A DNA stretch of 64,000 nucleotides from Escherichia coli (GTDB lineage Bacteria > Pseudomonadota > Gammaproteobacteria > Enterobacterales > Enterobacteriaceae), in the NCBI RefSeq assembly GCF_044324875.1, contig NZ_CP172185.1; one strand, written 5' to 3'. How positions within the stretch are numbered: the stretch's first letter is position 1; each line of letters opens with the position of its first letter. The position numbers were made by a program, and so were the translations under genes. Positions 2,638 to 63,648 of the stretch are shown one piece after another. Below the pieces are notes generated by a model. It searched no databases and was not told the origin of the DNA. It saw nothing but the letters and a program-made list of their open reading frames with translations.

Positions 2638-4104
2638 TTAAATTTTGAGGGTGTTTAATAGCGCCTGATGCGCGCCGAATTGTGCGATTTGTTGCCAGGC
2701 TTGTTCGATGGTCTGCACAAAATGCGGGTTATCTGGCAGATCATCACCGAAAACTTCACGCAGGGAAAGCAGGGCGGTGACGCGTTGTTCACTGCTGCTG
2801 CCCGCAACAAGTTCGCGAATTTTATCGCTAAGCGGATCGCGAACATCAATGGCATTTCCGGCATCATCAACGCCGCTGACGTAACGCATCCAGCCTGCAA
2901 CGCCTAATGCCAGCATCGACCAGTCCGTTTCGCGCCCCAGATGTATGCGAATACCTGCCAGCATGCGTTGCGGTAATTTCTGGCTACCATCCATTGCGAT
3001 TTGCCAGGTCTTATGTTTCAGCGCCGGATTAGCAAAACGTGCAATTAACTTATCCGCATATTGTGTTAAATCGACATCTTTAATTCGCAGTGTTGGCGCT
3101 TGCTCATCCAGCATTAATGTTCTGGCGGCATGGCGAAATGCGCGATCCTGCATGCAATCACTGATATGGGCGAATCCTGAGAGGTAACCCAGATAAGCGA
3201 GAAAAGAGTGGCTGCCATTAAGCATACGCAGTTTCATCTCTTCCCATGGCAGGACATCATTCACCATTTGTACACCTGCGACTTCCCAGGCAGGACGCCC
3301 AGCGACGAAGTTATCTTCCACCACCCACTGGATAAACGGTTCGCAGCTAATCGCGCAGGGATCATTCACCCCCAGATGCTGGCTGATTTCCGCTAGTGAT
3401 TCGTCGGTTGCAGCCGGAACAATGCGGTCGACCATAGTTCCCGGAAAACTGACGTGTTCTTTTATCCACCCGGCGAGTTCTGGCGAACGTTTTTCTGCCA
3501 TTCCCAGCACCGCGTTTTTCACCACATGGCCATTGTCGGGAATATTGTCGCAGGAGAGCACGGTAAACGGTGTAAGGCCGCGCTCACGGCGGCGTTTCAG
3601 TGCTTCGACGAGAATTCCCGGTGCGGAGTGAGGTTCTTCAGGATTTTGAAGATCGTGAATAATCCGCGGATTGCTGGTGTCGAGTGCACCGGTGGCTGGG
3701 TCAATACAATAGCCTTTTTCGGTAATCGTCAGGGAAACAATTGCCACCTGTGGCTCGCAAAATTTCTCAATAATTGCCGCTAAGGAATCCAGTTTTGCAT
3801 TCAGGCATTCGTGAACGGCACCGACAATTATCGCCTGATTGCCGTCCGCACCTTTCTCCAGCACGGTATATAAATGGTTCTGTGCGCGGAGCTGGCTCAT
3901 CAGTTGATCGCCGCTGAACAAGCTGATCTCACAGATTCCCCAGTCGCCGCCCTGGGCATTCAGCACACGATCGGTCAGTAACGCCTGATGTGCGCGGTGA
4001 AAGGCTCCGAAGCCAAAATGAACGATACGTGATTGCAACTGCTGGCGATCGTAGCGTGGAGCGTGTACATGATGCGGGAGCGTAGCGGAGGCGATTGTAT
4101 TCAT
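2638..4104 (-). CDS. yeiQ: Mannitol dehydrogenase-family oxidoreductase
   Basis: Track ORF 491 aa; start moved to MNTIASA (488 aa); long-chain mannitol DH-like sequence. Confidence 0.8.
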   Translation of the reverse strand: MNTIASATLPHHVHAPRYDRQQLQSRIVHFGFGAFHRAHQALLTDRVLNAQGGDWGICEISLFSGDQLMSQLRAQNHLYTVLEKGADGNQAIIVGAVHECLNAKLDSLAAIIEKFCEPQVAIVSLTITEKGYCIDPATGALDTSNPRIIHDLQNPEEPHSAPGILVEALKRRRERGLTPFTVLSCDNIPDNGHVVKNAVLGMAEKRSPELAGWIKEHVSFPGTMVDRIVPAATDESLAEISQHLGVNDPCAISCEPFIQWVVEDNFVAGRPAWEVAGVQMVNDVLPWEEMKLRMLNGSHSFLAYLGYLSGFAHISDCMQDRAFRHAARTLMLDEQAPTLRIKDVDLTQYADKLIARFANPALKHKTWQIAMDGSQKLPQRMLAGIRIHLGRETDWSMLALGVAGWMRYVSGVDDAGNAIDVRDPLSDKIRELVAGSSSEQRVTALLSLREVFGDDLPDNPHFVQTIEQAWQQIAQFGAHQALLNTLKI

Positions 4105-54932: not shown

Positions 54933-55616
54933 TTAAATGCCGAGTGGGAAAATATCATGGCCTTGTTCCTGCCAACTGGTAAGTTGCTGCTGTTGGGCGG
55001 AGGTTCGATTTTCACCGCACCACACCAGCAATGTACGGCCTTCGAACAGTTCAGGGCGTAGTTGATTGAGCGAGTGGGCGAGGACATCAATGCGCCATCC
55101 TTGTTGACTGGCAATCCAGCCCTCCAGCCATAGACGGGTGGTATCGTGAATATTCCAGCCAACCACCAGCGCATCTTTACCCTGTTTTTTACGTGCCGAA
55201 GCCAGGCAAATGGCGATGTAGTTGATCAGTACGCCGTCAAGGATCGCCAGCAGCGCCTGGAGGGTCGGTTGTTGGCACTGAAGTCGTCGGCGCAGAGGAA
55301 TAAACAGATGCGTGGTGAGTGTCTGGGCAGGGTAATCCTGACCGCGCTCTTTGATCCACGTTCGCAGGCTATGCAGATTGCCGCTTTGCAGGTAAGTCAG
55401 TAATGTTTCTTGCTGATCGCGCCAGCCGTTCTGCACATCAACATTTTCATTACTGAGCAGCATTTTAACTTTGCTGACCTGCACGCCGTTGTCGATCCAG
55501 CGTTTGATCTCGCGGATCCGGTCAATATCGGCATCGTTGAACAGCCGATGGCCGCCGTCTGTCCGTTGCGGTTTCAGCAATCCGTAACGCCTCTGCCACG
55601 CGCGTAACGTGACAGG
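54933..55616 (-). pseudogene. mlrA: MerR-family regulator MlrA (YehV) lacking its 5' end, interrupted by prophage insertion
   Basis: Reading frame matches MlrA from ...PVTLRAWQRRYGLLKPQRTDGGHRLF to C-terminus FPLGI; upstream in frame the expected N-terminus (MALYTIGEVALLCDIN) is absent and a stop lies at 55650-55652; no ATG start. Confidence 0.8.
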
Positions 55617-55654
55617 GATTAAGGGTAAACTAACTGATTTTACAAGTTTTTATT

Positions 55655-56941
55655 TTACCCCACTTTCTTATGGGGCATACATGGGACACTTTCAGATAGT
55701 CTTTTGTTAAGGAGTTCTATCTGTTCGTGATTGTTGTCTTTCATCCATGCTCCGTAAACATTGAATACCATTTGTGCGTTTGTGTGGCCCATCTGGCTTG
55801 CGATAAAACTAGGATTAGCTCCAGCGGCAAGTGACCAGCATGCATAAGTATGCCTGGATTGGTACGATTTTCTGTGTCTCAGACCTGCGCGTTTTAAGAT
55901 ACTTGTCCATGACTCCCTGATGGAGTCAACCTTATAGTGCGGTCCGGAAAACTGCCGCTGTTTTATTACCTGAGGACTAAAAACAAAAGTGCATTTATGC
56001 ACAGTACTTCTCCCATATTCCCTCTGCTTTACCTCTACAGAATGTTGCTTTCCAAGCATGGTCATTTCCGCCTGACTTTTAAGAGCATCAATAGCTGGTT
56101 GAACCAGATGAATTGTCCTTCCGGTGCCAGCATCGGTTTTTGGTGGAGTGAATTCGCCAAGTTTTGTATAATTCCTACGGATGGTTATAGTCCTTGCTTT
56201 AAGGTCTATATCTTCCCATGCCAGCGATACCAACTCCCCGTGACGAATACCCGTGTATACAGCGAGAATCCACAGGTTTTTTGTTTGTTGATGACGGCAA
56301 GCCTCAATAAAACGAATAAATTCGTCACGGGTGAGAGGATCTGGTTTTACCTTGGACTTTTTTAAGGGAGCCAGACCGTTAAATGGGTTTCCTGAGGTAT
56401 AACCATTATCTGTTGCAAATTGAAACATTCCAGCTATGGTTGTCATATAGTAGTTTACCGTGACCACTGAGCGCCCTTTTATGGAAGAAGTCTTTCCATT
56501 AGAAAGCTTTTGGTAACCGGTCAACAAATCTCTCCTTACGAAAAGTAAATCCTCTTTTGTTATGGATGAAACCAGTTTTTTTTCACCTAACATTGGTAAC
56601 ATGTTTTTAATTACTGACTGGTAACGGTTAAGTGCATTCGCACAAATCTCAATTTTCTTAAGGTCCAACCATTTTTCCGAAAGTGCCTTAACGGTTATCT
56701 CTCTTTTTCCCAGACCAAAGTGTTTCAGGTTAGGGGAATTAGGGAACTGCGCGGCGTAGTCGAAACTCCCCATTCTGATTGCAAAACAAACGGAAGTGCG
56801 AAGTTCACCTGCGATCTTCCGGTTTTTGGCGGTGTCAGGAACACCGAGGTTTTCTCTGACACGTTTGCCATTATAGTGAAACCATATACGGAGTGATCCT
56901 CCATGGTTTTCAACGCCTGTCGGGTATGATACGTTACTCAT
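55655..56941 (-). CDS. int: Phage tyrosine integrase
   Basis: 428 aa; conserved boxes TGIRHGELVSL and HRKSYQSRHTYACW ... VYGAW; SD gggagg; 3' end faces the att junction. Confidence 0.88.
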   Translation of the reverse strand: MSNVSYPTGVENHGGSLRIWFHYNGKRVRENLGVPDTAKNRKIAGELRTSVCFAIRMGSFDYAAQFPNSPNLKHFGLGKREITVKALSEKWLDLKKIEICANALNRYQSVIKNMLPMLGEKKLVSSITKEDLLFVRRDLLTGYQKLSNGKTSSIKGRSVVTVNYYMTTIAGMFQFATDNGYTSGNPFNGLAPLKKSKVKPDPLTRDEFIRFIEACRHQQTKNLWILAVYTGIRHGELVSLAWEDIDLKARTITIRRNYTKLGEFTPPKTDAGTGRTIHLVQPAIDALKSQAEMTMLGKQHSVEVKQREYGRSTVHKCTFVFSPQVIKQRQFSGPHYKVDSIRESWTSILKRAGLRHRKSYQSRHTYACWSLAAGANPSFIASQMGHTNAQMVFNVYGAWMKDNNHEQIELLNKRLSESVPCMPHKKVG

Positions 56942-56974
56942 TAAACCTCCCAGACGTCCAGGAGCATTAACAGG

Positions 56975-57229
56975 TTAACCGGAACTTGCATTTTTGGCAC
57001 CTGGTTGTTTCTGGTTTTCGATCCATCGCATAATTTCTTCGATGTTGTACAGGCATTCACTGTAGTGCCCCGGATCACCTTCTACAGCGTAATGGCGGTA
57101 TTCTTTTCCCTGCATCCATGACTTTCTTCTTGCCCGCTCAATGGTGCCAGGCTTTAGCCCTGTTGATGCAATGAGGACTCTCTCCGTACACCATTTGCTG
57201 GGGGTTATCTGATAGATGATTGTCTGCAT
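56975..57229 (-). CDS. Putative excisionase / small DNA-binding protein
   Basis: 84 aa immediately upstream of int in the same operon, basic, SD gagg; function inferred from position only. Confidence 0.45.
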   Translation of the reverse strand: MQTIIYQITPSKWCTERVLIASTGLKPGTIERARRKSWMQGKEYRHYAVEGDPGHYSECLYNIEEIMRWIENQKQPGAKNASSG

Positions 57230-57247
57230 GCCAACCTCATAAAATTT

Positions 57248-57382
57248 TCATCCACGGCAGTGGCACCACACATCAAACATTCGCTTCACAACTTCACGAC
57301 AGTAGAAGCCGTCAACATCTCGCGTCAGGTCATAGCGATTGCCATAACGCTGGCGCACCCATAGTTCAAATGCTTTATTCAT
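57248..57382 (-). CDS. Candidate small Cys/His-containing protein (45 aa)
   Basis: MNKAFELWVRQRYGNRYDLTRDVDGFYCREVVKRMFDVWCHCRG; starts 3 nt after the stop of the upstream gene; not in ORF track. Confidence 0.3.
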   Translation of the reverse strand: MNKAFELWVRQRYGNRYDLTRDVDGFYCREVVKRMFDVWCHCRG

Positions 57383-57385
57383 TCT

Positions 57386-57628
57386 TTACTTCCTTTTCAT
57401 GGCCCGTAATTTTTTCAGATGAGCTTCCTGCTCTGTTTCTGCCAGAATTTGTCGGTATTCCTGGTGATCGAGCCGTTCAAACAGTTCATTAAAATCGTTT
57501 ATTTTTACCGACTGTGTTCTCCCATCCATTCTTCTGTACAACACAGTGTTGTTTATGCAGCGAATAATTTTTACCGGGTAGCCAGCACTATCGGTGTATA
57601 TCTGACCACGTTGAATCAGAGCGAACAT
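57386..57628 (-). CDS. Hypothetical phage protein (80 aa)
   Basis: Track ORF, same orientation as the operon. Confidence 0.5.
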   Translation of the reverse strand: MFALIQRGQIYTDSAGYPVKIIRCINNTVLYRRMDGRTQSVKINDFNELFERLDHQEYRQILAETEQEAHLKKLRAMKRK

Positions 57629-57715
57629 TCCTTTATCCCCAGCGGAAAAGCGAATACAGAATAAATGCCACCGCTATTGCAACTCCTACTGCGGTGAATG
57701 CTTCAGGCCAATTCA

Positions 57716-58345
57716 TCATTTCACCTCCACGCCGATCCCGGCAATAACACAATCCCGTTTGATAGCTTCTTTCACCCAGCGTTTATAGGTTTCCGGATGG
57801 AATTTTGCGTTTTTTCCGGTACCGCTCCAGAATGCCTTTGATGTGATATCGGGCAGGGTGATGGTCAGGCCTTTCTTCTTGCTGCCTTCAGAACTTTTGC
57901 AAAAAGTTAATGCGTCGCGTAGTTCTTTAACACACGCATAGTTTTCTGCTTTCTCTGGGTCGCCGGTACGGTGTTCAGCTTCTTGTCTGCACCATTTGAT
58001 GACTTTCTCTGCGGCTGCGTGGAGACGCTGACGTTGCCAGTCGTATGTGTCGACCAGCCCATATGCGTGATTCTTTGCTTTGCTTAATTCAGCGACGAGG
58101 CATTCGGAATCAATCAAATTATTTTCCGCAGCGGACAGCGCTTGTTTAAGTCGCTCGATTTCTTGAGCCATGTAGTAGCCGGTTTTACTCCAGGTATCGA
58201 CATCATCGTCACTCATATCCAGTTCCATCGACGCCATCAGAACGGCGTCGTGATAGTTCTGGCTACCGCAGGTGATTGCAACGACGTAGGAGTCACTATT
58301 TTCTCGTTTATGGATAAGTACAACTGGGTTTTTGATCTTGCTCAT
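57716..58345 (-). CDS. Hypothetical phage protein (209 aa)
   Basis: Track ORF; no recognisable motif. Confidence 0.55.
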   Translation of the reverse strand: MSKIKNPVVLIHKRENSDSYVVAITCGSQNYHDAVLMASMELDMSDDDVDTWSKTGYYMAQEIERLKQALSAAENNLIDSECLVAELSKAKNHAYGLVDTYDWQRQRLHAAAEKVIKWCRQEAEHRTGDPEKAENYACVKELRDALTFCKSSEGSKKKGLTITLPDITSKAFWSGTGKNAKFHPETYKRWVKEAIKRDCVIAGIGVEVK

Positions 58346-58353
58346 TCCGCACC

Positions 58354-58449
58354 TCAGTAATTCATTAAAAATTTATATTCAATCAGCGCACCGAAAACGA
58401 CGGACGCCAGCAGCAGACCAAACAGCATGGACAGGAGGAATGACTTCAT
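58354..58449 (-). CDS. Candidate small hydrophobic protein (31 aa)
   Basis: MKSFLLSMLFGLLLASVVFGALIEYKFLMNY; ATGA start/stop overlap with the upstream 74-aa gene; not in ORF track. Confidence 0.3.
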   Translation of the reverse strand: MKSFLLSMLFGLLLASVVFGALIEYKFLMNY

Positions 58450-58670
58450 CGCTTTGCCTCCCGCTGTACGATTTTGTAGGCGCGCAGGATGTCGCGTGTT
58501 TTTCCTGACAACGATGACTTAACCCAGAAAAAGCCGCTGCGGTTTTCATAGATCCCCTGTACATTAAACAGCACCGCATCAACAACGCGGTTATGCTTTT
58601 GCAATGTCAGGCAGGAACTGGTGATCACGATGTTCGCTACGGCGCCATAGTCCTTGTATTGGATTTTCAT
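58446..58670 (-). CDS. Hypothetical phage protein (74 aa)
   Basis: Track ORF; start abuts the stop of the 112-aa gene. Confidence 0.5.
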   Translation of the reverse strand: MKIQYKDYGAVANIVITSSCLTLQKHNRVVDAVLFNVQGIYENRSGFFWVKSSLSGKTRDILRAYKIVQREAKR

Positions 58671-59009
58671 TTACATGTTCCCCATAACGGTATCGCTCAT
58701 GTCGTTAACCATGCTCTGCCAGATTTCTTTGCCGCTTTGCGTCAGCTCGTTTCCACGAACGCATTTGCTTAACAGCTGAATACCAACGGCTTCCCATTGG
58801 GGGTAATTTTCTTTGATAGCCTTCAGAGCATAACCATCGATTAAATCCCTGATACCTTTAACCCCACCGATGATGTTTACTCGTATGGATTGCCCATTGA
58901 CATTAATCATGAAATGATCTCCGTTGGTGGCGGATATGTGGTTGTGCAGTGCAGCCGCATACTGATTTGCCAGCGCATTGAGGCGGAAATTTTGTGTAAT
59001 GAGTGGCAT
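58671..59009 (-). CDS. Hypothetical phage protein (112 aa)
   Basis: Track ORF; TAATG overlap with the upstream ORF6N gene. Confidence 0.5.
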   Translation of the reverse strand: MPLITQNFRLNALANQYAAALHNHISATNGDHFMINVNGQSIRVNIIGGVKGIRDLIDGYALKAIKENYPQWEAVGIQLLSKCVRGNELTQSGKEIWQSMVNDMSDTVMGNM

Positions 59010-59755
59010 TATTTACCCTCCCAACCAATCACCTGAAACAGCCCCATTTTCGGGTGATACCAGCGGGTACCGCGTGGCTCTGCCTCTGACATCATCTGAT
59101 GAAATGCTTTCATGAACGGCTCAAGCTCCACGATAGCCCGGCGAGAAAGAAGACCATCTGGCGTCATAAATTCGTGCGTATCGGTTGGGATGCTGTAGGC
59201 ATTGACCAGATTGCGGCACTTGGCATCAGTCATTCCGCTTTTGGCGACCACCTGGCGATAACCGACATATCCGGCGCGCATATTTCCGCGTTTGATGTTC
59301 TCCACAGCTTTGGTGACCGTTTCGATCTTCTCTTCAACATGACTCAGGCGCTTCTGCTGGCGAACGGCATCGGCGGCCATTGCAGCGATCATCTCCATTT
59401 CCGTCAGCGGCGCGTGAGTTCGGAAATAGCTGTTAACCAGTTCGCGCTGAACCTGCCATGCAAGAGTATCGTTAAAAGGCTTCGTCAACATCAGGTAACC
59501 AGACTCGAAAAGAATGATCCCTTTGGCAGTTCGCGCGGCAAAGGCATCAGAAAGTGACTCCGTACGTATTACGTCCGCAGTCATTTCAAGAAAATCCACC
59601 CCTTCGATAAAGTGAGAACGGTTGCGGTTAAACGCAGCACGGGCGGTACCTTCCGGGCGCTGGTGGACGTCATCAATCATTGCAAATGTCACAACACGCT
59701 GACCGCGATATTCGATTACCGGAAACTGTTTGTTGTTGATGGTTACAGTATTCAT
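59009..59755 (-). CDS. ORF6N/KilA-N domain protein (antirepressor-like)
   Basis: Start at MNTVTINNKQFPVIEYRGQRVVTF..IDDVHQRPEGTA (SD ggag 7 nt upstream); N-terminal pattern typical of ORF6N/KilA-N DNA-binding domain. Confidence 0.6.
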   Translation of the reverse strand: MNTVTINNKQFPVIEYRGQRVVTFAMIDDVHQRPEGTARAAFNRNRSHFIEGVDFLEMTADVIRTESLSDAFAARTAKGIILFESGYLMLTKPFNDTLAWQVQRELVNSYFRTHAPLTEMEMIAAMAADAVRQQKRLSHVEEKIETVTKAVENIKRGNMRAGYVGYRQVVAKSGMTDAKCRNLVNAYSIPTDTHEFMTPDGLLSRRAIVELEPFMKAFHQMMSEAEPRGTRWYHPKMGLFQVIGWEGK

Positions 59756-59798
59756 TTTTATCTCCAGACAGCCCGGCGTGTAATACCGGGCATATGTA

Positions 59799-60626
59799 TT
59801 ACTTAACCTGAATAAATGGTGTGTTGGCACCGCTGGTCATGTATTGCGGCAGTGTACCGTTCCACTTGTTGATGGCTTCCAGCTCCATAACGTTTGGGTT
59901 CTGGCGCAGAGCTTCACCGCGTAAACGAATAGCATCGGCTTCGGCCTGGGCTTTTGTGCGAATCGCATCTGCCTGTCCGGCAGCTTCCGCGCGCAACATG
60001 TTGGCTTCCGCTTCGCGCTGTTTTACTTCCTGCTCGCGTTGCAGGGTTTTCTGGTTGGCCGTGACTTTGGCATTAATGCTGTCGATAACAGTAGGCGGGT
60101 ACTCCGGCTTACCCACATATGAGAGGCTCATTACCTGAATACCGATGGGCGTCATTTCTTCCTGAATGTCTTTAAGAGCTGCATCCAGCAGCTCAGACTT
60201 GCCGCCGTCGATAAATTTGTCGGTGGTCATTTTGCTGGCCAGTCGGTTGAGTGCGTCGGCTATCTTCTGGCGCAGGTCGGTGTCGGTAATGTCGTCCACG
60301 CCTTTGCGGTAGGTCTGAAAGACTGTGGTAACTTTGGATGGATCAACTTTGTAGGCCACGCCGATGTGATAGCCGATGGTTGTACCGTCACTCATCTGGA
60401 AACTGAATGGATCATCGTAGGTCTTCATCTGCTTAAAGGTCGGGAAGATGTAAACCTCAGTGTTCCATCCCGTCCAGTAGCGCCCAACACCGACCACTTC
60501 ACCGACGCCTTTATCGTCGCCCAGTTTGTTTACTTTGATGCCCACATTACCAGGCTCAACGCGATCGCAACCGACAAGGCCAATGGTCGGCAGAACAATG
60601 GCTAAAGCAAAAAGTAATTTTTTCAT
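59799..60626 (-). CDS. SPFH/band-7 (prohibitin/HflKC-like) lipoprotein
   Basis: 275 aa; signal peptide with lipobox LVGC; SPFH-type core and C-terminal coiled-coil QREQEVKQREAEANMLRAEAAGQADAIRTKAQAEADAIR. Confidence 0.7.
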   Translation of the reverse strand: MKKLLFALAIVLPTIGLVGCDRVEPGNVGIKVNKLGDDKGVGEVVGVGRYWTGWNTEVYIFPTFKQMKTYDDPFSFQMSDGTTIGYHIGVAYKVDPSKVTTVFQTYRKGVDDITDTDLRQKIADALNRLASKMTTDKFIDGGKSELLDAALKDIQEEMTPIGIQVMSLSYVGKPEYPPTVIDSINAKVTANQKTLQREQEVKQREAEANMLRAEAAGQADAIRTKAQAEADAIRLRGEALRQNPNVMELEAINKWNGTLPQYMTSGANTPFIQVK

Positions 60627-60811
60627 CTTTTATCCTTAGAAAAAGAAAGACCCTTATAAATGGCATAAATGCAGGGCGGGGTCAGACACGCCAGAGCAAA
60701 GCCAGAAATCACTGCTATCGTATCCTTCATGGATATAAGGAACGGAACGAGTAATCCGTAAATGCATGCGATAATTGCCAGTAAAATTACTATTGTGAAA
60801 TACAGTCTCAT
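60623..60811 (-). CDS. Small two-TM membrane protein coupled to the SPFH gene
   Basis: 62 aa MRLYFTIVILLAIIACIYGLLVPFLISMKDTIAVISGFALACL...; 4-nt start/stop overlap with the SPFH gene. Confidence 0.55.
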   Translation of the reverse strand: MRLYFTIVILLAIIACIYGLLVPFLISMKDTIAVISGFALACLTPPCIYAIYKGLSFSKDKR

Positions 60812-60987
60812 TGGTCTGTGGTATCCCGATATTTTTAACCGACTGACAGCGCAATAAAGAGAATAATGATTTCTGTTAGTGTCAGCACTGTGGCAAGGAT
60901 TAAAATCAGTTTTACTCTGTTTAATTCACGGTTGCTTTTCATATAAACGGTTAGTAAAAAACGGAAGAATTATTTTCTTCTTAATAT

Positions 60988-61569
60988 TTAATGTGTCACT
61001 GGCGCTTCTGGCATACCATGAGTATTCAGGTCGTGAATCATTTCATCCAGAAGGAGTTCAAGCCCTTCGCGCCCCATAGCAGAGAGAATGAAACCATTAT
61101 CAGGATCTGCGATGAGCATTTTTTGATAGAGAAACAGAACTCGCCCCATGCCTTCAGTTTCGCCATATTTTTCAATAAATCCCCATTCGACATGGTTTTG
61201 CAGGGCAATGCGAAGTGGTCCTGGGTATATACTTATGCAACCATGTTTCCCCTTGTAAATAACTGCGCGATCTGTCGTCCCGTTATCGTTAGGGATATCA
61301 ATAGTGCCGTTCTTGTCTTCCTCTTCACTGATAAACTTCATCACATACAGCCAGCGCCACTGAGCAACCTTCAGATCGACTGAAAATCTTCCCAGCAATC
61401 CGGCATCATCAGCTTCGGCAAGACATTGCATGATTCTTAAACCGTGCCAGTATGGATTATCGAATTCGCCATCATTAAGCCGCTGTACGGCCTGAATATA
61501 ATTAATGGTTGTATTACCAATTTTTATGCCATGTGGCGTTACTTCTGGTCGGAACTCTGAATGATTCAT
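60988..61569 (-). CDS. Hypothetical phage protein (193 aa from MNHSEF; track ORF extends to 61626)
   Basis: ATGA overlap with the upstream 67-aa gene if it starts at 61569. Confidence 0.5.
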   Translation of the reverse strand: MNHSEFRPEVTPHGIKIGNTTINYIQAVQRLNDGEFDNPYWHGLRIMQCLAEADDAGLLGRFSVDLKVAQWRWLYVMKFISEEEDKNGTIDIPNDNGTTDRAVIYKGKHGCISIYPGPLRIALQNHVEWGFIEKYGETEGMGRVLFLYQKMLIADPDNGFILSAMGREGLELLLDEMIHDLNTHGMPEAPVTH

Positions 61570-62444: not shown

Positions 62445-62903
62445 TCACCATTGGTATTGGTTCTTCCGTAGAAGAGCTTCGCGAGATAAGGAGCAAACTT
62501 GTTGAGATGCGTCATGGTGTTGCTGCTCCTCACTTTTTGGTTGCTCCGGAGGAGTAACCTCGCCAGTTAACAGCCACATCGGATCACAGCCAAGAACATT
62601 AGCCAGAGGGATAATCTGGCTTGCCAGAGGCTCCCTCTTGCCACTTTCCCACTGGATGATAATTTCTTCATCGAGATTGAGCAGCCTGGCGAGTTCGGCG
62701 GTTGTTAAGCCGCAGGCTTCGCGTTGGGTGTCAATAGAGCGATATTTTTTGTTTCCAGAAGGTAACAGAACACGTTTTATCTGTTGGATTTTTTCTATTG
62801 CAACTTCAATGAGTATGTTGCGGTTTCTTTCTGATGCAGACTCCATGCTTTCATGAAGTAGTGATTCTGCTTGTTCGATAAGAATCAGTTGTAAAGAAGA
62901 CAT
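62445..62903 (-). CDS. HTH (XRE/Cro-type) domain protein immediately downstream of cI
   Basis: 152 aa; central segment LTTAELARLLNLDEEIIIQWESGKREPLASQIIPLANVLGCDPMWLLTG is a typical XRE helix-turn-helix; SD gagg. Confidence 0.6.
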   Translation of the reverse strand: MSSLQLILIEQAESLLHESMESASERNRNILIEVAIEKIQQIKRVLLPSGNKKYRSIDTQREACGLTTAELARLLNLDEEIIIQWESGKREPLASQIIPLANVLGCDPMWLLTGEVTPPEQPKSEEQQHHDASQQVCSLSREALLRKNQYQW

Positions 62904-62988: not shown

Positions 62989-63648
62989 TTAAATTTGCAT
63001 ACGCATCTCAACGACAACACCAAGAATTTCACAATCGCCATTGATAGGGATCAGTGGATAGCGTGGGTTTAGTGGTTTTAAGAAACATTGTCCTGCGTCT
63101 TCAATGTACTGTTTGAGGGTTGCTTCACCGGAATTTTTGAGTCTAGCGACAACATATTTTCCTGAAAAAACTTCTTTGTCAGGGTTTACAAGAATGTTCA
63201 TGCCTTCAAAGATTGAGAACTCCCCATTCTGTGACGTCATTGAGTCACCTTTTACCTCCAGCCAGAATCCGTTATCTCCTGCATATATATCGCTACCGAT
63301 CCAATCTTCTGGATAAGGTATGTAATCTTCGCAGTTCCAAGGGCCGGCGCTCACCCATGTTAATTTTGGGTATCTGTAACGCGTTGGAGAAGCTGGTTTG
63401 GGGTTTCGAACGTTTTGAATACTATCTGTAGGTGAAGGTTCGCTACCATCAAGGAGCCATTTAGGTGAGCATTTTAATGCATCTGCGATCCTGAATAGGT
63501 TTGACGATCTTGTGTCTTGTGAGTCTCCTAACTCTATTTTGCTGATTGTTACACGTGAGACACCCGTCAATTTTGCCAGGTCATCTTGTGACATGCCTAG
63601 CTGAACTCTACGCATTAACAATCTCTGTCCAAAACTATCGTGTTCCAT
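62989..63648 (-). CDS. cI: CI-type phage repressor (HTH plus LexA-like S24 peptidase domain)
   Basis: 219 aa; N-terminal HTH MSQDDLAKLTGVSRVTISKIELG; C-terminal domain with GDSM serine motif and downstream lysine. Confidence 0.8.
   Translation of the reverse strand: MEHDSFGQRLLMRRVQLGMSQDDLAKLTGVSRVTISKIELGDSQDTRSSNLFRIADALKCSPKWLLDGSEPSPTDSIQNVRNPKPASPTRYRYPKLTWVSAGPWNCEDYIPYPEDWIGSDIYAGDNGFWLEVKGDSMTSQNGEFSIFEGMNILVNPDKEVFSGKYVVARLKNSGEATLKQYIEDAGQCFLKPLNPRYPLIPINGDCEILGVVVEMRMQI

Follow-up and report, generated by a model that had tools for sequence, protein, structure and literature searches.

Between the genes of an early-left (pL-type) operon, a lambdoid prophage inserted at mlrA/yehV in Escherichia coli leaves a few short gaps, and the question is whether the small open reading frames (ORFs) that fit into them encode proteins and, if so, of what kind. 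The prophage is part of the window analyzed here, a stretch of 64,000 nucleotides (nt) of contig NZ_CP172185.1 (RefSeq assembly GCF_044324875.1). An earlier note on this DNA had placed two micro-ORFs between positions 57248 and 58449, joined to their neighbors by a start/stop overlap or a 3-nt spacing. Both are indeed found there on the minus strand, the 3-nt spacing belonging to the frame termed ORF1 here and the start/stop overlap to ORF2. A third micro-ORF of the same kind as ORF2, termed ORF3, had been overlooked. All three are likely to be genuine protein-coding genes of small size, situated distally in the operon, with ORF2 and ORF3 encoding accessory membrane micro-proteins.

Arrangement and annotation of the micro-ORFs

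The minus-strand gene chain that extends from int (55655) to approximately 60811 has junctions of mostly 0–34 nt. The only larger gaps between 56900 and 58700 are exactly filled by ORF1, ORF2 and ORF3 and, with the three micro-ORFs counted, almost no unassigned DNA is left in the chain.

ORF2 (58354–58449, minus strand) consists of 31 codons plus stop, in agreement with the 31 amino acids (aa) given by the earlier note, and encodes the peptide MKSFLLSMLFGLLLASVVFGALIEYKFLMNY, a predicted single-pass membrane micro-protein that carries the motif G-A-L-I-E-Y-K-F at its C-terminus. The best 19-residue segment, residues 5–23, has a Kyte-Doolittle value of 2.54. The start codon overlaps the stop codon of the upstream 74-aa gene in an ATGA (58446–58449, minus strand). 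It is preceded, 7 nt upstream of the ATG, by the Shine-Dalgarno (SD) sequence GGGAGG (58457–58462, minus strand), whose duplex with the 3' end of the 16S rRNA amounts to −10.3 kcal/mol; in related loci the SD reads GGGAGG, GGGGTGA or GAAGGA. At its other end, the ORF2 stop is located 8 nt ahead of the ATG of the 209-aa gene (58345), inside the SD of that gene.

ORF3 (57633–57719, minus strand) encodes the 28-aa peptide MMNWPEAFTAVGVAIAVAFILYSLFRWG, likewise a predicted single-pass membrane micro-protein, with a best 19-residue Kyte-Doolittle value of 2.28 at residues 7–25. The program-made ORF list contains it as a 39-aa ORF with a TTG start; the ATG at 57719 shares an ATGA with the stop codon of the 209-aa gene, as at ORF2, and the ORF3 stop lies 4 nt ahead of the ATG of a DUF4222 gene. 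The SD of ORF3, GGAGGTG (57722–57728, minus strand), forms a duplex of −10.6 kcal/mol. The 16S pairing of ORF2 and ORF3 is the strongest from xis to the 74-aa gene, the remaining values ranging from −5.5 to −6.9 kcal/mol.

As judged from their sequences, both ORF2 and ORF3 would form a single hydrophobic helix of membrane-spanning length with short conserved polar ends. These ends are W-P-E/D-A at the N-terminus and R-W-G at the C-terminus of ORF3, and the G-A-L-I-E-Y-K-F segment at the C-terminus of ORF2. Both peptides fall within the size and hydrophobicity range of small single-pass membrane proteins, with one spanning segment in a chain of no more than about 50 aa.

The two membrane peptides have largely escaped annotation. 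ORF2 is missing from the annotation of the Prokaryotic Genome Annotation Pipeline (PGAP) in the five RefSeq genomes inspected, so that the word unannotated, used in the earlier note, applies to it there; it does not apply to phage phi467, in which ORF2 is an annotated coding sequence (CUW01254.1), nor to sporadic GenBank records. The exact ORF2 peptide is recorded from 854 contigs, and a few GenBank entries name it 'hypothetical protein'; the named sources of the family are E. coli, Enterobacter, Citrobacter and Pseudocitrobacter. For ORF3, no annotation is present in RefSeq, BP-4795 or VT1-Sakai, although a few GenBank records have one. Neither peptide has a Pfam, PHROG, NCBIfam or PADLOC family, the Pfam matches being insignificant (E ≥ 0.07) and to unrelated families, and neither the ORF2 profile nor ORF3 had a significant match in PDB sequence searches. 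A tblastn search of ORF2 against phage records, in which the low-complexity filter masks the helix, returned phi467 only, and a literature search found the motif ALIEYKF in no paper.

ORF1 (57248–57382, minus strand; peptide MNKAFELWVRQRYGNRYDLTRDVDGFYCREVVKRMFDVWCHCRG) is of a different nature. It comprises 44 codons plus stop, which corrects the 45 aa of the earlier note, and is the last gene before xis. Its ATG is located 3 nt past the stop of the DUF4222 gene, with an SD-like AAGGAAG (57389–57395, minus strand; anti-SD duplex of −6.3 kcal/mol) within the last DUF4222 codons, and its stop lies 18 nt ahead of the xis ATG (57229). The description as unannotated fails for ORF1, which is already present in RefSeq as WP_001030141.1 in a 99.9% identical genome, and in phage BP-4795 as the protein numbered ORF3 there (YP_001449240.1). 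ORF1 matches phrog_3871 with E=3.9e-33, residues 1–44 aligning to positions 1–44 of the 48 of the profile, and is thus an ordinary full-length member of a family that has no assigned function. Pfam and NCBIfam have no family for it, with no Pfam match of any kind. The AlphaFold2 model (predicted local distance difference test score of 89) consists of a helix (residues 3–13), a loop and a second helix (residues 30–43), and a Foldseek search of the model against the PDB yielded no fold relative (best E=6.9). The sequence is hydrophilic. ORF1 is predicted to be a soluble helix-loop-helix protein of a catalogued phage family, which is usually encoded between a DUF4222 gene and xis.

The earlier note had also singled out the Cys and His residues of ORF1. 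These do not stand as a feature of the family: C40 is replaced by Arg, H41 by Tyr, Ser or Glu, and C42 by Leu, Arg or Phe in many homologues, and C28 is the only nearly invariant residue among them. A zinc-binding Cys/His mini-domain was considered and rejected on these grounds, since the variability of the C-terminal C-H-C makes a metal site unlikely.

Sequence conservation and gene contexts

The comparison of homologous loci shows purifying selection on ORF1, ORF2 and ORF3 at the protein level. Conservation among related prophages was one of the checks that the earlier note had named, with non-conserved frames as part of the outcome that would speak against its proposal; the frames proved to be strongly conserved.

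A DNA-similarity search of E. coli genomes revealed ORF2 in three other prophages that have different integrases and unrelated flanking genes. In each of them ORF2 is 31 aa long, has the same ATGA overlap and fills an unannotated gap of approximately 100 nt. A pattern and tblastn scan of viral contigs added 80 more loci, and across the 83 further loci the homologues measure 29–34 aa. In total, about 115 loci provided 45 distinct DNA variants. No stop interrupts the sense frame in any of the 45, and each of the two remaining frames of that strand is closed in 44–45 of them. The ratio of nonsynonymous to synonymous substitution (dN/dS) over codons 2–27 is 0.25, the lowest among the six frames. 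In the variable helix (codons 2–19) the entropy at second codon positions is 0.33, compared with 0.86 and 0.79 at the other two, the pattern expected from selection for hydrophobicity. Within the G-A-L-I-E-Y-K-F segment (codons 20–27), third positions vary in six of the eight codons and second positions never do.

The scan pattern had contained ALIEYKF, and a control sample of 80 loci was found through the neighboring 74-aa gene alone. ORF2 lies directly downstream in 34 of the 80 loci, and [A/T]LIEYKF is present in each of these except a truncated allele of 24 aa, which ends in ...GALIE. In another 40 loci the ATGA runs straight into another gene without ORF2. When 1.84 billion representative proteins were searched exhaustively with the profile, only 15 matches resulted, which indicates that the ORF2 family is small and narrow. 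The 14 that were retrieved are peptides of 30–45 aa with the same design plus one 85-aa fusion, E24 being present in 14 of 14; the fifteenth lies within a 3604-aa protein. Rearranged alleles were also encountered: at one locus (L081, approximately 2944–3057) the N-terminus of the 74-aa gene is joined to the C-terminal VVFGALIEYKFLIGF in a chimera, and in protein P0133 (85 aa) the 74-aa gene and ORF2 are fused in frame.

In the E. coli and pattern-scan samples, which comprise 83 copies of the ORF, the stop/start overlap is present in 79 of the 79 contexts with an identifiable upstream ORF. The neighbors belong to four unrelated families upstream and eight families downstream. ORF2 is thus an optional gene-sized cassette, made up of 96 nt and an 8-nt spacer bearing the next SD, and no fixed part of its neighbors. 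The layout, in which the start lies on or a few bases from the upstream stop and the SD lies within the upstream gene, is the typical arrangement for translational coupling, as the earlier note had proposed, and it is also found at ORF3 loci.

BP-4795 and VT1-Sakai, with DNA 88–91% identical to that of the window, encode exactly the same ORF3 peptide. Diverged versions of constant length, such as MTWPEALTTVGIAMAVALVVYSICRWG and MSWPDAIVTLGVVFAAAFVVFSICRWG, occur in loci found by DUF4222 similarity. The family consists of 27–28-aa peptides of the form WP[E/D]A ... RWG from at least 126 loci, 120 of them from a scan with a degenerate DNA pattern; about half of the copies sit 4 nt before a DUF4222 gene and the rest in other contexts. 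The frame is open in 54 of 54 distinct DNAs, 53 of which are closed in each of the other frames. In the helix core, which lies outside the search pattern, the entropy at codon positions 1, 2 and 3 is 0.55, 0.30 and 0.98, and the dN/dS is 0.34, compared with 0.63 and 1.8 in the other frames.

Homologues of ORF1 form 78 protein clusters at E ≤ 0.001, with lengths of 44–48 aa, from Escherichia, Shigella, Salmonella, Pantoea, Enterobacter and Citrobacter. They share the conserved core RYDLTRDxxGFYCREVVKRMFEVW. The frame is open in 63 of 63 distinct DNAs, in which the entropy at codon positions 1, 2 and 3 is 0.29, 0.27 and 0.85. The dN/dS, from an alignment anchored on the RYDL motif, is 0.11, the other frames having 2.4 and 1.6. 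In 7 of the 80 loci anchored on the 74-aa gene (L092–L170), the ATGA leads directly into a 48-aa gene of the ORF1 family (MNREFEIWVRLR...).

Proposed role and alternative explanations

In the arrangement described above, each micro-gene would use its own SD, and a ribosome finishing the upstream gene would start directly on the next one. Promoter- and terminator-like signals between 56900 and 61000 show no excess over shuffled sequence, and an Rfam scan of 56000–60000 revealed no family at E ≤ 1. With no interrupting signal of either kind and no Rfam match, expression should follow the early-left promoter, and translation is anticipated only upon prophage induction or infection. The products of ORF2 and ORF3 would then be accessory micro-proteins inserted in the inner membrane. 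Via their conserved juxtamembrane residues, they would probably dock on a larger membrane protein of the host or the phage, rather than cause generic membrane damage. The helix cores vary among hydrophobic residues and the boundary residues are nearly invariant, a combination that fits a specific partner contact at the membrane surface. On the DNA level, the small genes evidently move as single-gene cassettes, present or absent between varied neighbors, with the ATGA junction being rebuilt each time.

More tentatively, ORF2 and ORF3 may represent two unnamed phage families, each targeting a specific enterobacterial inner-membrane protein, the former through LIEYKF and the latter through WPEA and RWG. 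If so, the two peptides would, for instance, reprogram transport, signaling or envelope stress at the onset of the lytic cycle, or exclude competing phages, their genes would be exchanged among lambdoid prophages as self-contained units, and a layer of membrane-directed host takeover in the well-studied Stx-type prophages would have gone unseen, with ORF2 and ORF3 omitted from the reference annotation.

The earlier note had suggested that small hydrophobic peptides at this position in phages are often Kil-like or membrane-active toxins. In this case ORF2 and, by extension, ORF3 would be host-killing peptides made early after induction so as to arrest or permeabilize the host, either as division inhibitors like Kil or as membrane-depolarizing toxins resembling those of type I, which we regard as unlikely. 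Small size is a property that the micro-ORFs have in common with lambda Kil and the type I toxins (Hok, Ldr, TisB, Ibs, ShoB), the latter also being single hydrophobic helices, and a short charged end adds to the resemblance to small membrane toxins. In addition, an operon that is silent in the lysogen would make a toxic product tolerable, and homology has little to say against a toxin, since neither ORF2 nor ORF3 has a known family. Nevertheless, no positive support was obtained. At E ≤ 1, Pfam gave no match to its Lambda_Kil family or to Hok/Gef, Ldr, TisB, Ibs and other such toxins, and the type I toxin families of NCBIfam likewise gave none at this threshold. Type I toxins have their own promoter and an antisense RNA; here, Rfam detects no antitoxin small RNA, no promoter-like site is located near the micro-ORFs on either strand (56900–60700), and the genes are chained translationally in an operon instead of standing alone. 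The position is not that of kil either, because the gam-kil-cIII block is absent: no homologues of exo, bet, gam, kil or cIII were found between the cI-like repressor and int. Furthermore, the target of lambda Kil, FtsZ, is cytoplasmic (PMC11323111), and the strongly conserved polar LIEYKF speaks more for a specific contact than for generic damage to the membrane.

A second alternative is that the micro-ORFs are translated merely as spacers that maintain downstream coupling or prevent Rho termination, their peptides being functionless. Every junction is indeed an overlap or a gap of a few bases, with the ORF2 stop placed within the SD of the next gene, and where ORF2 is absent the flanking genes join directly by ATGA. 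This last observation cuts both ways, for direct joining works without ORF2 and the cassette is thus not needed for coupling. A spacer would also not account for the preservation of the amino-acid sequence, namely the codons of the ORF2 motif, which change almost only at third positions, the low dN/dS of ORF3 with its exactly conserved length, and the still lower value of ORF1. The same ORF2 peptide is also kept beside four upstream and eight downstream gene families. We consider a pure spacer function very improbable.

Several points weigh against the preferred reading of the three frames as protein-coding genes, with ORF2 and ORF3 as accessory membrane micro-proteins. Outside its motif, the dN/dS of ORF2 is 0.38, a moderately low value, and one shifted frame reaches 0.41, a frame that has stops in every sequence. 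The ORF2 and ORF3 samples were partly gathered with patterns containing the conserved motifs, which builds in part of the invariance, and the unbiased sets are smaller. Neither the peptides nor the locus tags looked for appear in the supplements of a ribosome-profiling study of novel small genes in strain Sakai, although an uninduced prophage would be silent anyway. The docking step is drawn by analogy with characterized bacterial small membrane proteins. Finally, an antisense frame of ORF2 is likewise free of stops in 45 of 45 DNA variants, with a dN/dS of 0.48.

The open antisense frame leads to a third alternative, in which the sequence conserved under ORF2 would be an antisense ORF (58332–58508, plus strand) or a DNA or RNA element. 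The codon composition of hydrophobic coding sequence commonly leaves an antisense frame open. The one under ORF2 has no constant start, stop or length across loci (58, 69, 50 and 43 aa), its dN/dS is double the sense-frame value, and it runs against the operon with no promoter-like site and no Rfam family, which leaves the antisense explanation a very slim chance. Chance open frames in intergenic gaps are effectively refuted by the comparative data: frames of 30–45 codons are frequent (139 ORFs of at least 20 aa in 8 kb), but those of ORF2, ORF3 and ORF1 are open in every distinct DNA with the alternative sense frames closed, start context and length are conserved, and the substitutions are of the coding type.

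For the preferred reading, the consequences lie mostly in annotation and cataloguing, and current understanding is not overturned. ORF2 and ORF3 lack family models, and defining both families would let pipelines call them. The two peptides are short and well-delimited candidates for work on phage-host membrane interactions, and the cassette's presence or absence, with the ATGA rebuilt, illustrates a phage mosaicism that keeps translational coupling intact.

Prophage setting and comparison with known systems

The chromosomal part of the window contains yehX, yehW, yohO and mlrA (yehV), followed by the prophage, which is inserted at the 5' end of mlrA, a curli regulator gene (region 54933–56941). 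The same site is used by the Stx1 prophage of O157:H7 Sakai, in the record of which yehV is divided by the insertion. The integrase gene int (55655–56941, minus strand) adjoins mlrA. Downstream of ORF1 lies xis (56975–57229, minus strand), a DUF1233 excisionase gene (PF06806, E=2e-29; phrog_539). The cI-like repressor gene (62989–63648) is located at the far end, next to a gene for a second helix-turn-helix regulator (62445–62903), and all genes from the repressor down to xis and int are on the minus strand. This gene order, a cI-like repressor followed by same-strand genes up to xis and int, bears out the early-left operon assignment of the earlier note. The operon is short, approximately 6.5 kb, with the micro-ORFs in its distal part within 1.5 kb of xis. 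PADLOC defense-system profiles gave no match at E ≤ 0.1 for 10 operon proteins.

Among the neighboring genes, the 74-aa gene upstream of ORF2 (58446–58670, minus strand) belongs to phrog_1001, and the 209-aa gene between ORF2 and ORF3 (57716–58345, minus strand) to phrog_492. For the latter, RefSeq has only a 159-nt 'incomplete' pseudogene fragment in the 99.9% identical genome, whereas phi467 annotates the full gene and the ORF in the window is intact. The last ~50 residues of its product (LTITLPD..SKAFWSG.GK..FHPE.YKR.VKEAI.R.CV.AGIGVEVK) are found again in related phages, attached to a wide variety of N-terminal parts. The 80-aa DUF4222 gene between ORF3 and ORF1 (57386–57628, minus strand) matches PF13973 (E=3.2e-17) and phrog_285. 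The DUF4222 family includes RgdR (ECs1581), a prophage-encoded regulator of enterohemorrhagic E. coli O157:H7 that activates type III secretion of the locus of enterocyte effacement and represses motility (PMC3378721, PMC10877973). Residues 7–9 of the protein in the window are RGQ, and the functionally important RGD of RgdR occupies residues 20–22 of that protein.

Between 56900 and 59100, the window and E. coli LH50-c are 99.9% identical. Beyond approximately 60.9 kb the LH50-c prophage at mlrA has different genes, which shows the early-left operon to be a mosaic; a 100% match to positions 60780–61020 of the window is found in another LH50-c prophage, at record position ~2.34 Mb. A further unannotated hydrophobic ORF of 35 aa, MKSNRELNRVKLILILATVLTLTEIIILFIALSVG, is present at 60835–60942 (minus strand), all of its E. 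coli matches being at least 95% identical. It is flanked by a 212-aa gene and by the gene of a 62-aa membrane protein (phrog_1130), which overlaps an SPFH-domain lipoprotein gene.

With respect to known systems, the micro-ORFs occupy the same genome place as the exo-xis genes of lambda and Stx phages. These genes (ea8.5, orf55, orf60a, orf61, orf63 and ea22) are small, conserved and non-essential, are located just upstream of xis, are expressed from pL at the earliest lytic stage, and modulate the lysis-lysogeny decision (PMC3824215, PMC8614690). The micro-ORFs are homologous to none of them. In position, ORF1 corresponds to lambda orf55, each being the last gene before xis. Homology between the two was considered and rejected, since the predicted folds differ, with three beta-strands and a helix in Orf55 and helix-loop-helix in ORF1. 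In the searched text of PMC8614690 there is no mention of a transmembrane protein.

The small proteins of phages at large have been reviewed (PMC11323111). Like ORF2 and ORF3, they are short, often missed by annotation and move as single-gene cassettes; the characterized ones are mostly soluble regulators or inhibitors, such as Kil, Gp0.4, the TraR-like Orf73 and anti-repressor modules. By contrast, ORF2 and ORF3 are predicted membrane peptides without an assigned family.

A likeness in design is also found outside phages. ORF2 and ORF3 share a size of about 30–50 aa, one hydrophobic helix and a short conserved polar boundary segment, a possible site of specific contact, with MgrB, MgtS, AcrZ and SafA, small bacterial proteins that cross the membrane once and regulate larger membrane proteins. 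They have no sequence relationship to these proteins, and differ from them in being phage-borne and translationally chained in a polycistronic early operon.

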